The notes under the pieces were generated by a model. It had not been told where the DNA came from, searched no databases, and saw only the letters and a list, made by a program, of their open reading frames with translations. A stretch of 23,803 nt of DNA, from IMG/VR virus record IMGVR_UViG_2563366943_000008, positions 1 to 23,803 of that record. The stretch is one strand, 5' to 3'. Source of the DNA: a virus. Its lineage: Duplodnaviria; Heunggongvirae; Uroviricota; Caudoviricetes. Position 1 is the first letter of the stretch. Every line of letters starts with the position of its first letter. Both the position numbers and the translations under genes were made by a program. This document shows, in pieces, positions 11,342 to 20,607 of the stretch.

Positions 11342-12153
11342 AAAATCTCCAGAACGCAACAGGACGCATTCTAACGCTATTTTCATTGCTTGGTATAGGG
11401 ATGTATAGGTGATGTGTGTTTAATGCGTCTGTGCGCTTGTTTTGTGCCTTATTTTGCATTTTCATAATGCAGAAGAGAACACGGAAAACCTTAAAATTAA
11501 TTATTGGGGTATTTAAGGGTATTTTCAGGTGATTTAAGGGTATTAAACTTGATTTAATTGATTAAAATATAAACAGATAGTTGTGTATCTTATTGATTTA
11601 TAAGGTTATTTTTAAATAAAGGTAAATAAAAAATAAATAGCCATAAATAGCTATAAATACATCTAAATACCTATATCCCTTCCCTTATGGCTAGATTGCG
11701 AGAGGTGCTTAACGCGATTTTCAGCGCCCCCCGATCTGGAAAATCCAGAATCCCCAAATATCAGCAAGGAATTTTCTTGCGTAATCAACATCGTTTTTAC
11801 CTATTAAATCATTACACAGAAAGCCTTTCTGTAATGTCTCTCACTAAACTTTCACTAAACACGAGAATGATCGGTTTTATGTCGGATCAGATGCTAGAAA
11901 CAGCACCACGTCTCACAAGGACTGTAAGCGATGAAACCAGTGTTTATGCGGGTGCAGGTCAAAATATAGGCCAAAATCAATTTAACATAATAAACGTAAT
12001 ATGCACTAAGGAACACATAGAACGCCTTGAGTTGATGTATCAGGGGAAAAGTGATGGATTTTTTACGTAGGAGCACGAGAGGGCTTCTGTTGACTTTTGT
12101 ATGCTATGAAACATAATTAAAGGTTTTTTTGTTTTTATTGTGTGATGTAGTGG

Positions 12154-13127
12154 ATTACACAGGGGAATAGATTAAATGGTGTTCTGTTTATACAGGTTTA
12201 TTTGTTAGATCAACAATTTGGCATTTCTAAACAGATGTTTGAACGTTGCCAAATGTCTTGACAACACAAGAAAAGGGCTTGCTATGCCACGCATTACACG
12301 AAATAAGGCTGTAAAAACAAAATAAATTTTAAAATTTGCACAAACGAGAAAACTCGTTAAGAAACAAGCAGAACAATTTTTAGCCAACAATTTCTGATGG
12401 TGCTCTGTAGGCCGCACTACACAAGGATTTGCGAAAGTGATGTAAAAGTGAAGAAAGTAAGAATTGCACTTTTAAGCTACTTTTCATTGAATTTTTAGTA
12501 TGGAATTACACAGGAATAAGTTAGGGATATTCTATGATTTACACAGGGAATATAGGGGATTATGGCACACACATAGAAAGGCATTACACAGAGTGAGTGC
12601 TATGTGATGATTGGTAGTAACGGTAGGTCATAGTGAGCTAGGGGGTAGGTCACTGTGAACTACAATAAGACTATTAATAAAACTATATTAGATTATTAAT
12701 TAGATCATAATAATAATATTCTTTATATCTATATATATGATCTTTTGCCTTCCGGCGTTAGCTTCACTCTCTGGCAAGCAGCCTTACTCCGCTACCTTTC
12801 GGGCTTCGTGGCTGGCCCGTTCCGCTCACACCGAAAGCAAAGCGTTACTTTCTTCGTGTAACTTCGTTGGCGGTAACGCCCACGAAGAAATCTATTGCGC
12901 TGTGCGCAGTAAGAGTAATCACCTAACCAATCATACTGATTGCTTATGTGTTAACTCTCTCTAACTCTTAATTACCCTCCTACATTTAATAACTCTGTTA
13001 TTCTCTGTAGTTGTGTAATTACTCGAAGAGAGAGCGGCTAAAGCTCAATTACACTCTGCTTTCCTCGTGTAATTTCACTAAGCCTCAATACAATTTCACT
13101 TCCTACATTCTGTAGTCGTGTAATTGT
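12154..13127. repeat. iteron field flanking an AT-rich tract and GC-rich core (origin-like region)
   Basis: Direct copies of (A/T)TTACACAGG(G/A)AATA at 12154, 12505, 12538 and 12583, plus variants at 12293 and 12417. Inverted copies CGTGTAA(T/C) at 12855, 13012, 13066 and 13117. 17-bp repeat TCTGTAGT(T/C)GTGTAATT at 13004 and 13110. GGTAGGTCA repeats at about 12625 and 12649. Extremely AT-rich tract at about 12660-12745. Confidence 0.5.
12745..12915. ncRNA. candidate structured RNA or single-strand initiation element (strand undetermined)
   Basis: GC-rich patch inside AT-rich DNA. Hairpin CTTCGTTGGCG-GTAA-CGCCCACGAAG (12862-12887; 10 of 11 positions pair, GNRA-type tetraloop). Hairpin CGGGC-N10-GCCCG (12800-12819). 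Long-range complementarity CTTACTCCGC (12783-12792) with GCGCAGTAAG (12904-12913). The overlapping 75-aa ORF has a non-protein-like sequence. Confidence 0.25.
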
Positions 13128-13761
13128 TTTCGGTGGAAAAGCCAGAGGCGACACCGAAAGAGAATTCTGATCTTATTAATCTTATCTATCTTAGTTAATC
13201 TTCTTACTTATCTTACTTACTTTATCTACTTTATTATTAATAATAGCTTTATAAGCTCTCTGTGTAGCTCTCTGACGCAAGAAACAGCATTCAGGAAGGG
13301 AATCACCTTAGAAAAGGTGTTCTTTGCGTCATAATGTGTTTTATGAAGGATTCAGAGGTGTTTCATAACAGGAATGTATAGAGAATACTTTAGGTAATTA
13401 AAAATAAGGGGTCTAAATGCTTCTCTAACAGCATTAAGCAGGGTAGGGAATGGAAACGCATTGCCTACATATAATAAACTCACTACAGGGCTTTACAGGG
13501 CGTTTTATAAAGCGACTCTCTGTTTTATATCTACAATCACCTTTTCATATACCTAACAAATACAAAATAAGCCCCTTAAATAAGCCTCTGGCGAGCTAAA
13601 CAGACATTACATAAGAGAATGTATTGCTTTTATCAAAACTTCGTTAGAACGCGTTTTAGAGCGTTTTAGCGGATAATGAAGAATAGCACTACACAGAAGA
13701 GCACGAATTGCTAAGACAAATTATAACATGCTGAAAAAGATCGATTTTTTCGAAAAGGGTA

Positions 13762-13790
13762 TTGACAAATGTTTCTTTATATGTAATAAT
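13762..13790 (+). promoter_or_regulatory. sigma70-like promoter upstream of the rightward small-gene array
   Basis: TTGACA at 13762-13767, 16-17 bp spacer, TAATAA(T) at 13784-13790. The -35 is embedded in GGGTATTGACA, sharing the GGGTATT motif seen elsewhere in the element. Confidence 0.4.
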
Positions 13791-13903
13791 AGGTATTAGA
13801 GGGACAGAAAAACATTCTTCTCTAAATAATCAAAATCAATGCACTTTGAAGCCGTCAGGCTTGCAAGGTGTTTTATTTCTTTTAACTGAATAAGGAGTTT
13901 TTT

Positions 13904-14092
13904 ATGAAATGGTTTACACCGGAGCACGTCGTAAAGGCATTTAAAAAAGGTGAGCTTACACGCCACCAAATAGTAATGAATCGTAATATGGCAAGGAGTC
14001 GAGGTTATCCAGAGCGAGCAGCTTGCTTCAATGAAGCACTCAAGATTATTGATGAACTAAGAAAAAATGAAAAAGAATCTGAAACAGAGTAA
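13904..14092 (+). CDS. hypothetical small protein (62 aa)
   Basis: ATG preceded by TAAGGAG Shine-Dalgarno at optimal spacing; first gene downstream of the promoter. Confidence 0.5.
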   Translation: MKWFTPEHVVKAFKKGELTRHQIVMNRNMARSRGYPERAACFNEALKIIDELRKNEKESETE

Positions 14093-14335: not shown

Positions 14336-15028
14336 ATGATTAACCAACTAACTTTTACAAAACACTATGACACGTTTGATAATATATCAAAGATTTATTC
14401 TGATAAATTCCCTCAAGGAAAAGATTTAGATCTATTACATATTGTGCTTTATTTTCGATTCCTTAGTTATCAGGAAAACAACCTTAATTGTTATGAAAGT
14501 CACGAAACATTAGCTAAGATTTTTAAGTCTTCACCATCAACAATTAAACGTAAGATAAACGATCTTAAAGAGATGGGATTATTAGAAACATCCCCACATC
14601 CTGATCCGTATATTTCATCTTTGATTTACAATGCTCTCCCTCTCACAGATGCACATATTACTCCCCCAGGAGAATCATCACTCTCTGATCTTTCTGAGGC
14701 AGAAGAAGCACAGGAACAACCTAAAGGCCATAAACAGCCTTCTTTTGATGTTCTTGATGATGATTGGGATACGCCTTTACCCTGGGAGACGGAAGAAACA
14801 CCTGTTTCATCAAGTGAAAAGGTAGCTAATGATAATGAGGAGGATGTGTTAGAGAATTTTGCCTCTCTTATCATCCAGGAGAAACACAAAAGAACAGGAG
14901 GGGCATCATTTATAGAATTTGCAAATTCACTAGCTTGTAGATACGGGCTAAAACGACCAAATGGTATTGAGGCATATTTTTCTAAGCATTACCCAAATGT
15001 ATACGAAGACTTTGATATTCCCTTTTAA
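14336..15028 (+). CDS. putative winged-helix DNA-binding protein with acidic C-terminal tail (replication-initiator / replisome-organiser-like)
   Basis: ATG at 14336 with AAGGAG 9 nt upstream (ORF track starts at 14312). N-terminal segment ETLAKIFKSSPSTIKRKINDLKEMGLLE is a typical HTH. C-terminal third is strongly acidic (DDDWDTPLPWETEETP...EEDVLENF). Confidence 0.45.
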   Translation: MINQLTFTKHYDTFDNISKIYSDKFPQGKDLDLLHIVLYFRFLSYQENNLNCYESHETLAKIFKSSPSTIKRKINDLKEMGLLETSPHPDPYISSLIYNALPLTDAHITPPGESSLSDLSEAEEAQEQPKGHKQPSFDVLDDDWDTPLPWETEETPVSSSEKVANDNEEDVLENFASLIIQEKHKRTGGASFIEFANSLACRYGLKRPNGIEAYFSKHYPNVYEDFDIPF

Positions 15029-17140: not shown

Positions 17141-18169
17141 ATGATTCTAGGTAATGATTACGTTGATTTAGCTCCTCTGTTCTCTGCGCATAGCACTAGA
17201 AATTATCTACTTTCTACTCTCGACTTCACTGATCCGGTGGGCGTTAGTTCTCATAAAGTAGCTGTTTCCCAGCTTGTCGAAAGCAACGAATCTCTCTTTA
17301 ACAAAGAGACAAGCCGTTTTAGTTCTGAACACAATGTTACTAAGCGAGAACAAGGTAAAGAATGGCTGATCGAAATCCCTTACTTCCTGCGTGAAGATGT
17401 GATCCGTCCTTCTGATGTTCAAGGCAAGCGTAAGCCTGGCACTGATTTTCAGGAAACACTCACTGATATTTATGCTGACTATGTTGCTAAACACCACGTA
17501 GCGTATCAGCGTACAAAAGAGAGCGTGCTGGCTGCATCTCTGTTTAGCGGTAAAACTTACACGCCTAAAACTGATGATGTTCTTATCGAGTGGAGCAAGC
17601 TGTTTAACGTATCAGCTATGAAAGCCACTGTGAACGCTTCCAGCACTGACACCACGAAGATTTTTAAAGAATTTGATCAGATTGCTACTGACATTATCGA
17701 AAAAGCACAGAGTCAGGCGGCGGCTGTAGAGCGAATTGTTGTTTTCTGTAAGCCGGAAGCCTTCTCTGCAATTCGATTCTCTGCTGGTATGGCAAACGCA
17801 TTCCAGTATGTAAGCCCACTGGAAGAGGGGAACGTTGTGTATCAGCGTCGTGACCTGCTGCCAGGGGTGACAGCGTTCACTATTCCAGGAACTAACATTG
17901 ATGTTGTTAAACTGGTAGATCCGCTACACCTGGCACATATGACCGCAGACGCTGTAGCTGTGCCTAAATTCTCTAAGGGTAGCGGAATTTATACCAACAT
18001 CTACGGGGCTGCTTCCAGCACCTTTGAACTGATTAATGCCGCTCCTGCTGAGGTGTATAGCTATAGCTATGAATCTTCTCGTGGTGATGCTGTTAACGTT
18101 GTTACAGAGAATAGCCAGATGGTGGTAAACCACGGTGTAGGCTTCTCCGTTCAAATCACTGTTAAATAA
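17141..18169 (+). CDS. putative major capsid protein (lambda gpE-like / HK97-fold candidate), 342 aa
   Basis: Length close to lambda gpE (341 aa). Local resemblance IVVFCKPEAFSAIRFS versus lambda IIVFDPKGWALFRS as recalled from memory. No signal peptide or enzymatic motif. Followed by a strong intrinsic terminator, consistent with a highly expressed structural gene. Confidence 0.4.
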   Translation: MILGNDYVDLAPLFSAHSTRNYLLSTLDFTDPVGVSSHKVAVSQLVESNESLFNKETSRFSSEHNVTKREQGKEWLIEIPYFLREDVIRPSDVQGKRKPGTDFQETLTDIYADYVAKHHVAYQRTKESVLAASLFSGKTYTPKTDDVLIEWSKLFNVSAMKATVNASSTDTTKIFKEFDQIATDIIEKAQSQAAAVERIVVFCKPEAFSAIRFSAGMANAFQYVSPLEEGNVVYQRRDLLPGVTAFTIPGTNIDVVKLVDPLHLAHMTADAVAVPKFSKGSGIYTNIYGAASSTFELINAAPAEVYSYSYESSRGDAVNVVTENSQMVVNHGVGFSVQITVK

Positions 18170-19378: not shown

Positions 19379-20284
19379 CTATATTTCCAGACATCTGTTA
19401 TCACTTAACCCATTACAAGCCCGCTGCCGCAGATATTCCCGTGGCGAGCGATAACCCAGCGCACTATGCGGATGCCATTCGTTATAATGCTCGAACGCCT
19501 CTGCAAGGTTCTTTGCTGCCGTTAACCCGTCTGGTTTGGGCATGATACTGATGTAGTCACGCTTTATCGTTTTCACGAAGCTCTCTGCTATTCCGTTACT
19601 CTCCGGACTCCGCACCGCCGTGTTCTTCGGTTCAAGTCCCAACATCCGGGCGAACTGGCGTGTTTCATTAGCCCGGTAGCATGAACCATTATCCGTCAGC
19701 CACTCCACTGGAGACGACGGAAGATCGTTGCCGAAGCGGCGTTCCACCGCTCCCAGCATGACGTCCTGTACTGTTTCACTGTTGAAGCCGCCGGTAGTGA
19801 CCGCCCAGTGCAGTGCCTCACGATCACTGCAGTCCAGCGCGAACGTGACACGCAGTCTCTCTCCGTTATCACAGCAGAACTCGAACCCGTCAGAGCACCA
19901 TCGCTGATTGCTTTCTTTCACGGCCACTCTGCCTGTATGTGCCCGTTTCGATGGCGGTACAGCAGGTTTTCGCTCAAGCAACAGCGCATTCTGGCGCATG
20001 ATCCGGTAAACACGTTTGGCATTGATCGCAGGCATACCATCAAGTTCTGCCTGTCTGCGAAGCAGCGCCCATACCCGACGATAACCATACGTGGGCAGCT
20101 CTCCGATAACATGGTGTATACGGAGAAGCACATCCGTATCATCAGTGTGACGACTGCGGCGGCCATCCATCCAGTCATCGGTTCGTCTGAGAATGACGTG
20201 CAACTGCGCACGCGACACCCGGAGACAACGGCTGACTAAGCTTACTCCCCATCCCCGGGCAATAAGGGCGCGTGCGCTATCCAC
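19379..20284 (-). CDS. insD: IS2 OrfB (InsD) transposase catalytic (DDE) domain; expressed as OrfAB by frameshift
   Basis: 301-aa ORF overlapping insC; sequence matches IS2 InsD. Confidence 0.88.
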
Positions 20285-20607
20285 TTTTTTGCCCGTCCAT
20301 ATTCAACGGCTTCTTTGAGGAGTTCATTTTCCATCGTTTTCTTGCCGAGCAGGCGCTGGAGTTCTTTAATCTGCTTCATGGCGGCAGCAAGTTCAGAGGC
20401 AGGAACAACCTGTTCTCCGGCGGCGACAGCAGTAAGACTTCCTTCCTGGTATTGCTTACGCCAGAGAAATAACTGGCTGGCTGCTACACCATGTTGCCGG
20501 GCAACGAGGGAGACCGTCATCCCCGGTTCAAAGCTCTGCTGAACAATTGCGATCTTTTCCTGTGTGGTACGCCGTCTGCGTTTCTCCGGTCCTAAGACAT
20601 CAATCAT
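20242..20607 (-). CDS. insC: IS2 OrfA (InsC) transposase N-terminal / regulatory protein
   Basis: 121-aa product [53 protein letters not shown] matches IS2 InsC (HTH). Confidence 0.9.

Follow-up and report, generated by a model that had tools for sequence, protein, structure and literature searches.

Phage satellites of the SaPI/PICI and PLE kinds carry an initiator of their own, either a primase-helicase or a RepA_N protein, and a non-coding origin that contains iterons and is AT-rich at its centre. To our knowledge, no structured GC-rich module has been described in these origins. Here we analyse a 23,803-nucleotide (nt) stretch of DNA (IMG/VR virus record IMGVR_UViG_2563366943_000008; below, the window), which is Escherichia coli chromosome, 100% identical to NZ_OZ547117.1. 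It contains a compact mobile element with an origin of the same general kind, but with an O-like initiator, Rep, and with capsid, tape-measure-like and Dit-like genes. A GC-rich patch, the island (12744–12915), sits in the middle of the element's non-coding region, 1.4 kb upstream of the initiator gene. A sequence-only reading had proposed that this patch is a structured regulatory or priming RNA or the single-strand initiation hairpin of an origin. The island is best explained as that conserved portion of a replication origin of the iteron (lambda-O-like) type which does not vary with the type of initiator, and we put at roughly 0.4 the probability that it becomes exposed on melting of the origin and then acts as a single-strand initiation signal.

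The lambda O protein binds inverted-repeat iterons beside an AT-rich tract, and two iterons plus the tract suffice for unwinding (PMC7466680). As in lambdoid origins, Rep joins a type-specific N-terminal DNA-binding domain to a conserved C-terminal domain; tandem iterons, several of them dyad-symmetric (for example, ATACGGGAAAAACCCGTAT in the relative L023), abut an AT-rich unwinding tract; and neither DnaA boxes nor the IHF consensus are found in the origin region (12100–13300). The element departs from the lambdoid plan in that its iterons lie 1.6 kb upstream of rep and not inside the gene, which is the lambdoid hallmark. Further, no P-like helicase-loader gene is recognised in the element, the AT-rich tract is followed by a 170-nt multi-hairpin module rather than a short sequence, Rep ends in a tail resembling the tip of SSB, and iteron cassettes can stack.

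In oriV of the IncQ plasmid RSF1010, the hairpins ssiA and ssiB become available as priming signals once the initiator has bound and the DNA has unwound (PMC8567376). The modular logic is alike, with a priming signal that is separable from the iterons; in the element, alternative islands stand behind interchangeable iteron cassettes. RSF1010, however, encodes a primase, RepB′, which reads its two signals (40 nt each, on opposite strands), and a helicase, RepA. Pfam and PHROG searches of the element's proteins gave neither a primase nor a helicase family, the element's signal is about 170 nt long with features on one strand, and a plasmid blastn search gave no sequence similarity. Origins that combine iterons with a neighbouring hairpin signal are a known kind, but the module itself, its core, its alternative types and the host element are not in Rfam, in the phage and plasmid collections or in the literature that we searched.

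Initiator, iterons and AT-rich tract

Rep (230 residues; 14336..15028, plus strand) matches HTH_36 in Pfam and the replication-initiation and O-like families in PHROG (best E = 1.1e-9), with weak winged-helix and DnaD matches in the PDB. A protein search with Rep returned, among the matches listed, near-identical E. coli proteins only, and a contig scan with Rep peptide patterns, which used the variable N terminus, returned one locus. Relatives of the element, denoted here by locus numbers, were collected in two ways: group II elements came from a metagenome scan with an 18-mer of the island's core and from two E. coli genomes and, because the 18-mer sample is biased by its discovery, relatives were also gathered with a capsid-protein profile. 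The group II relatives are syntenic with the window's element at a protein identity of only 25–60%.

Across the relatives, the N-terminal 110 residues of Rep fall into sharply different types, whereas the C-terminal half is conserved. There are about ten N-terminal variants, each with its own iteron family directly upstream of the AT-rich tract and island. The window has two type A iterons, GGTAGGTCAYWGTGARCTA, at 12622..12662 (plus strand); relatives with the same Rep type have 2–5 copies, and other Rep types have other iterons at this place. The iteron nearest to the AT-rich tract is of type A in 11 of 11 loci with the window's Rep type (type 1), of type B (ACCCCTATCAA) in 8 of 8 with type 2, of type D (CCCCCACAGAATTCTGTTA) in 4 of 5 with type 3, and of type C (CCTAGGAAATGAGTTCC), or a degenerate copy of it, in 8 of 8 with type 4. 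Further one-to-one pairings involve iteron types F, G, H and I, with the dyad-symmetric ATACGGGAAAAACCCGTAT and TGTGACGTTATGTCACA among them. The exceptions are L032, which combines a type 3 Rep with A iterons, the window's origin type, and L049 and L058, which combine A-like iterons with another Rep N terminus.

Between iterons and island lies, in all relatives, an AT-rich tract, the presumed DNA-unwinding element (12660..12743 in the window, where it has 14% G+C and GATC sites), and the order of iterons, AT-rich tract (about 65–85 nt) and island is constant. Because the iteron type tracks the N-terminal type of Rep within this constant layout, it is well supported, as far as sequence comparison can take it, that the patch lies within an iteron-type, lambda-O-like replication origin. 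The iteron region has no match among phages, and the iterons are therefore not copies of known phage origins. In L002 (19420–20010), L010 and L006, two to four iteron cassettes of different specificity are stacked upstream of a single island, with a duplicated copy of the AT-rich tract, which suggests that origin modules may be shuffled by recombination within the TATATA tract.

A second class of repeat surrounds the origin. The motif WTTACACR has 11 matches in the window versus 3.3 expected, and 8 of these fall within 12154–13124, in opposite orientation on either side of the island: five copies on the plus strand in the left arm (12154, 12293, 12505, 12538 and 12583; 12154..12590) and three on the minus strand in the right arm (13012, 13066 and 13117; 13012..13124). 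They are probably binding sites for some factor. One copy falls within the 5′ arm of the main hairpin.

Fold and conservation of the island

The patch is compositionally distinct, as the sequence-only reading had it: 12744–12915 has 54.7% G+C, preceded by a 14.3% tract (84 nt, 12660–12743) and followed by a 31% stretch. At least two hairpins, one of them capped by GTAA, had been described, and these are present as well. TTTCTTCGTG (12849–12858) and CACGAAGAAA (12881–12890) form a perfect 10-bp (base pair) stem around GGCG-GTAA-CGCC (12869–12880), and a GCGC-TGT-GCGC hairpin follows at 12897–12907; the GTAA loop reads ATAA in about 7 of 33 near-identical variants. The proposed 10-bp long-range closing of the island, CTTACTCCGC (12784–12793) with GCGCAGTAAG (12904–12913), did not hold. 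This pairing exists in the window (9 of 10) but is not conserved: many close homologues carry a 1-nt deletion in it (GCGCAG-AAG), the 3′ partner is unrelated in divergent relatives, and the helix competes with the conserved GCGC/GCGC hairpin. A CTTTCGG/CCGAAAG helix was also dropped, as it is not conserved in the group II relatives.

Read along the plus strand, the island begins with a 5′ hairpin region (12744..12771) in which the window has GCC-TTCC-GGC (12747–12756) and relatives have GGCG-loop-CGCC in the same place. It is overlapped by the motif GCGTTAGC (12755–12762), the mini-hairpin of the St-1/alpha3 primase origins (PMC13037366). The conserved core is a bulged hairpin, P1 (12773..12817), built from a base (GGC 12773–75/GCC 12815–17), an outer helix (CAGCC 12779–83/GGCTG 12810–14) and an inner helix (GCT 12791–93/GGC 12802–04). 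PriA sites of the phiX174 type are hairpins with internal loops and no sequence consensus, recognised by their activation of PriA. After P1 comes the landmark CCGCTCAC (12822..12829), which every island type has, and then a three-way junction (12849..12890) in which the 10-bp outer stem encloses hairpins a (AAC-TTC-GTT, 12860–68) and b (GGCG-GTAA-CGCC, 12869–80); the 5′ arm of the junction holds an inverted GTTACACG repeat (12855–62). The GCGC-TGT-GCGC hairpin (12897..12907) completes the island. This hairpin and the landmarks CCGCTCAC and GCGCTGTGCGC are common to the alpha (the window's), beta and gamma types of island distinguished below.

Relatives with 25–60% protein identity keep this architecture of bulged hairpin and three-way junction while building the stems from different sequences. 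The outer stem of the junction occurs in four forms, TTTCTTCGTG/CACGAAGAAA in the window and GTGCAA/TTGCAC, TGTGCC/GGCACA and TCGTGC/GCACGA elsewhere. Hairpin a is closed by AAC/GTT, TGGC/GCCA, AGGC/GCCT, TAAC/GTTA or AGGGC/GCCCT, and hairpin b has six different sequences, including GGCG-GTAA-CGCC, CCGT-GAAA-ACGG, TGAC-GTGA-GTCA, CTGAC-GAGA-GTCAG and TCG-TGAAA-CGA. The outer stem of P1 is CAGCC/GGCTG in alpha, TGTCC/GGACA in beta (L111) and TGACC/GGTCA in delta (L108), and its base is either GGC/GCC or GGGG/CCCC.

To count these changes we used a covariance model, R1, built from five group II sequences with their structure, which aligned 74 matches, 39 of them distinct. In this alignment, fitted as it is to the structure model, standard pairs fill 94.5% of the cells of the 39 sequences, versus 81.8% in column shuffles (0 of 500 reach the observed value) and 23–44% when partners are slid by 1–3 columns. 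Both sides have changed in 19 of 29 pairs, compared with 11.5 in shuffles, so that the covariation among homologues suggested by the sequence-only reading as a check is found. P1 (helices 2–4, 99–100% paired) and the three junction helices (5–7) are 97–100% paired, and the junction helices have 12 of 14 pairs changed on both sides. For P1, the support comes from compensatory changes in two divergent types, the 5′ core having no thermodynamic support. A comparison of hand-parsed arms, in which arms of the same type pair at 1.0 and arms of different types at 0.7, was set aside as circular. A conserved, predicted single-strand fold of the island is supported by the compensatory changes together with the plus-strand GNRA loops described below.

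Folding energies give a more uneven picture. Relative to dinucleotide shuffles, 12735–12925 (191 nt) has z = -2.15 (RNA, plus strand), -2.82 (RNA, minus strand) and -3.71 (DNA, plus strand). The excess is confined to the 3′ half of the patch (z -3.3 with RNA and -3.6 with DNA parameters); the 5′ half (12744–12830) folds with the stability of shuffled sequence (z about 0).

The sequence-only reading had also judged the overlapping open reading frame (ORF) not to be protein-like, and we agree. The ORF (12737–12964) has no Pfam or PHROG match and, because near-identical homologues carry 1-nt indels inside it, it is not coding; with no protein homologues and the frame broken, the patch is ruled out as a protein-coding gene.

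Of 5,426 complete E. coli genomes, 438 carry the island at 95–100% identity, and 682 carry the flanking non-coding DNA. Its copy number per genome has a median of 1 and a maximum of 2 places (438 genomes), which rules out a dispersed repeat or miniature inverted-repeat transposable element. No significant blastn match to the island was found in 72,556 plasmids or 50,697 phages; the best phage match at E up to 10, 38 nt at the 3′ end of T7 gene 10B (84% identity, core in reverse complement, E = 7), we judged to be chance.

In group II, the block 12764–12829 is the best conserved non-coding stretch, at 89–95%. In a relative found through its capsid protein, L107, the 60-nt core is 91.7% identical to the window's, versus 64.5% for the capsid gene and 55–59% for the flanks. 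L107 is the only capsid-profile relative with the alpha core. In L111 and L112 the frame is the same but the core differs (beta), the core of L108 has diverged (delta), another hairpin-rich module stands in L102–L105 and L115 (gamma), and in some relatives, L113 among them, the replication module as a whole is of another kind. Because relatives found through their proteins often carry other modules in the same slot, the alpha island is one of several alternatives; in the sequences at hand, it is the commonest module in the slot behind the putative unwinding element.

Could the patch be functionless, such as the remains of a gene, a small repeat that inserted here or an accident of composition? 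The lack of folding excess in the 5′ half and the different sequences that other family members carry at this position would agree with that, but a core conserved at about 92%, against about 64% in neighbouring genes, and helices with compensatory changes are not expected of a relic. Nor is the island a dispersed repeat, being single copy per genome, and there are no protein homologues and indels break the frame. We consider a relic extremely improbable.

The folded strand and its possible roles

Several features point to the plus strand as the strand that folds. Across types, GNRA-capped hairpins of at least 3 bp number 7 on the plus strand and 1 on the minus strand, and the recurrent wobbles, at two pairs, are G-T on the plus strand. 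It is this bias of loops and wobbles that identifies the plus strand as the folding strand. Apart from the wobbles, the stems of the island are fully Watson-Crick.

Whether the folded strand is DNA or RNA is a separate matter. GNNA loops do not discriminate between the two: DNA mini-hairpins of this kind have high stability, and both ssiA and the hairpin that primase recognises in the G4, St-1 and alpha3 origins contain them (PMC13037366). Computed with DNA parameters, z lies between -2.3 and -4.4 in 7 of 8 types; RNA parameters give a smaller and less even excess of stability (0 to -3.3).

The primase origins of G4, St-1 and alpha3 use GCGNNAGC mini-hairpins, of which GCGTTAGC is the St-1/alpha3 variant (PMC13037366). 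The island resembles these origins in having several adjacent hairpins on one DNA strand, here beyond chance (z -3.3 to -3.7), and stable GNNA or mini-hairpin loops, with GCGTTAGC found at 12755–12762 of the window and again in hairpin a of L049. Further, a dependence on SSB and primase, as in these origins, would fit the SSB-like tail of Rep. It differs in that no sequence homology is detectable and that the G4 origin has neither a three-way junction nor a 60-nt sequence-conserved core. Nor are the element's mini-hairpin motifs strand-biased: 14 of the GCGNNAGC/GCGNAGC type occur across types that are not independent of one another (6 on the plus strand, 8 on the minus strand), where by our own rough estimate about 3 would occur by chance.

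The same observations bear on another explanation, that the island is a structured non-coding RNA of about 170–220 nt, transcribed rightwards from the AT-rich tract, which would prime synthesis, activate the origin or serve the element in regulation or immunity. A multi-helix architecture with a three-way junction would suit such an RNA, as would the GNRA loops enriched on the plus strand, the two G-U-compatible wobbles and a core whose sequence is strongly kept without its stems being unusually stable, as happens in RNAs that make tertiary or trans contacts. The group II AT-rich tracts contain a conserved TATAAT, and in L085 a promoter-like site precedes the island and a hairpin (Pc) followed by T-rich sequence resembles a terminator. 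Against this, the plus strand of the window has no sigma-70-like promoter before the island and no terminator behind it, L111 likewise shows neither, and L082 lacks a promoter-like site upstream of its island. The Rfam search that the sequence-only reading had advised gave no family for the island: with Rfam 15, only tRNA-Thr reaches the gathering score in the window, and nothing in 12700–12950 matches at E up to 10. With Watson-Crick stems, z-scores that are better with DNA parameters, and a position fixed against the unwinding element, which is what a DNA signal would need, we regard an RNA as possible but, on balance, unlikely.

A further alternative dispenses with a folded single strand. 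The island might act as duplex DNA, offering palindromic binding sites, or a cruciform, to a protein of the host, of a helper phage or of the element; it could be, for example, a pac- or cos-like site through which a helper terminase packages the element, or it could have an architectural or boundary role in the origin. Lacking both terminase and portal genes, the element needs a cis packaging signal somewhere; the core is kept in sequence and not in folding energy; z-scores are equal on both strands; and symmetric WTTACACR repeats flank the region. The alpha, beta, gamma and delta modules could, in this case, match different helpers. However, stems that are replaced with pairing kept are expected of a folded strand and not of palindromes read by a protein. 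The nested three-way topology of the helices and the bias of loops and wobbles to the plus strand also count against it. The phage search offered nothing better than E = 7 in 50,697 genomes, and the island is fixed beside iterons and AT-rich tract. A role as duplex DNA thus seems quite improbable.

Of the candidates put forward by the sequence-only reading, the origin is best supported: the origin context and a conserved fold stood, and the long-range closing helix fell away. On the reading that we favour, a single-strand initiation signal, Rep would bind its own iterons (12622–12662) and melt the adjoining 14% G+C tract (12660–12743). As the opening reaches the island, its plus strand would fold into P1, the three-way junction with its GNRA-type cap and the GCGC hairpin. 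The folded single-stranded DNA would then act as an initiation or primosome-loading signal for the host's DnaG primase or PriA, followed by DnaB, and a primer laid down on the plus strand would be extended leftwards across the origin. Beyond Rep and its iterons beside the AT-rich tract, we infer every step, namely, the melting, the DNA nature of the folded strand, the enzyme recruited and the direction of synthesis.

The C terminus of Rep may help to bring in host enzymes. The tip of SSB, DFDDDIPF, binds partners including DnaG and PriA through its IPF motif (PMC10143822), and the window's Rep ends in ...YEDFDIPF (15005–15025). Across the family, Rep C termini have an acidic stretch followed by (I/L)PF, in the forms DFDIPF, EDLPF, STIPF and DPIPF, over four different C-terminal domains (including those of L049, L058, L059, L082 and L086). 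A bolder version of the proposal, which we rate as rather unlikely, is that the island may be an exchangeable structured cassette facing the host machinery, which together with an SSB-tip-mimicking Rep recruits primase or PriA to the melted origin with no helicase, loader or primase from the element, in a family that mixes iteron cassettes, Rep domains and island types.

Several points weigh against the island being a single-strand initiation signal. We infer its role within the origin from position alone. In the conserved 5′ core, folding is no stronger than in shuffled sequence; hairpin formation alone does not explain why its sequence is conserved. The fold draws on few independent lineages, about 6–9 types, and the pairing counts come from an alignment fitted to the structure. 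The majority of the divergent relatives came to light by means of an 18-mer taken from the core, and family members found through their proteins often have a different module at this place (beta, gamma or delta). Reps of the DUF6945 type (L023 and L056) have no IPF tail, and their islands are kept. L085 has GTCACA-17-TATAAT 50–90 nt upstream and its terminator-like hairpin inside the island. Finally, blastn comparison with G4, St-1, phiX174 and plasmid single-strand initiation signals gave nothing significant.

If the reading holds, the locus would be a clean natural modular origin, carried by a mobile element of about one in eight sequenced E. coli. In it, a specificity part (the Rep N-terminal domain and the iterons) would be swapped freely, and a structured, conserved module would load the host's priming and helicase machinery; a mimic of the SSB tip on an initiator would be linked to origin firing. 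For finding and classifying the element family, good markers are available in the island and its alternative types, and the origin could serve as a compact set of orthogonal replicons with about ten Rep/iteron specificities.

The host element and neighbouring sequences

The window begins with proA and tRNA-Thr(CGT), thrW (1369–1444), followed by two tandem islands of mobile DNA. The first thrW island (about 1.5–10.6 kb) has its own integrase, IS1, a protein like P22 gp16 (ejection protein family) and PerC. The second (about 10.6–23.8 kb) is the compact element that carries the GC-rich patch. After a tiny ORF it has a non-coding stretch of about 2.5 kb with no annotated genes (11342–13904), then small ORFs and rep, a lambda-E-like major capsid protein (17141–18169) and, in its right part, a tape-measure-like gene split by IS2 (19379–20607), a Dit-like protein and a tyrosine integrase. 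Since IS2 lies within the tape-measure-like gene, the window's copy of the element is probably defective. In strain 2013C-4538, the same element stands alone beside thrW and measures about 12 kb; neither a portal nor a terminase gene was found among the proteins of this 12-kb element (Pfam, PHROG). The element also occupies 17400–29700 of L002. It looks like a phage-satellite family that is widespread in E. coli and apparently undescribed, and literature searches on the element family, on thrW satellites and on SSB-tip mimics in initiators returned nothing specific.

Other parts of the non-coding region are conserved to varying degrees. At its left edge, relatives have a small serine recombinase gene (L025, 2475–3014; L024, 1491–2048; L116, 4194–4745), to which a 127-residue ORF of the window (11687–12070), with no family match, is unrelated. 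A 140-nt module (12376–12517) and a 40-nt block (12215–12254) are conserved in family members with the gamma island, and are also kept in a copy of the element inside the IncF plasmid NZ_CP126938.1. To the right of the island, the 1 kb up to the promoter of the rep operon (12916–13900) includes a second AT-rich tract with CTTATCT repeats (13166–13260) and short blocks, such as CTGTAGTTGTG, GCGGCTAARGCT, GTGCCAGAGG and CAGGGTAGGGAAT, that are kept in very divergent relatives (L049, L052, L056 and L111).

Finally, the rep operon itself is preceded by a strong promoter-like site, TTGACA-17-AATAAT with TG (within 13762–13903), and by a conserved leader hairpin, GAAGCCGTCAGGCTTGCAAGG, between this site and the first small ORF. 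In group II, the leader has several promoter-like sites and a terminator-like structure, features that suggest control of the rep operon by attenuation or antitermination.

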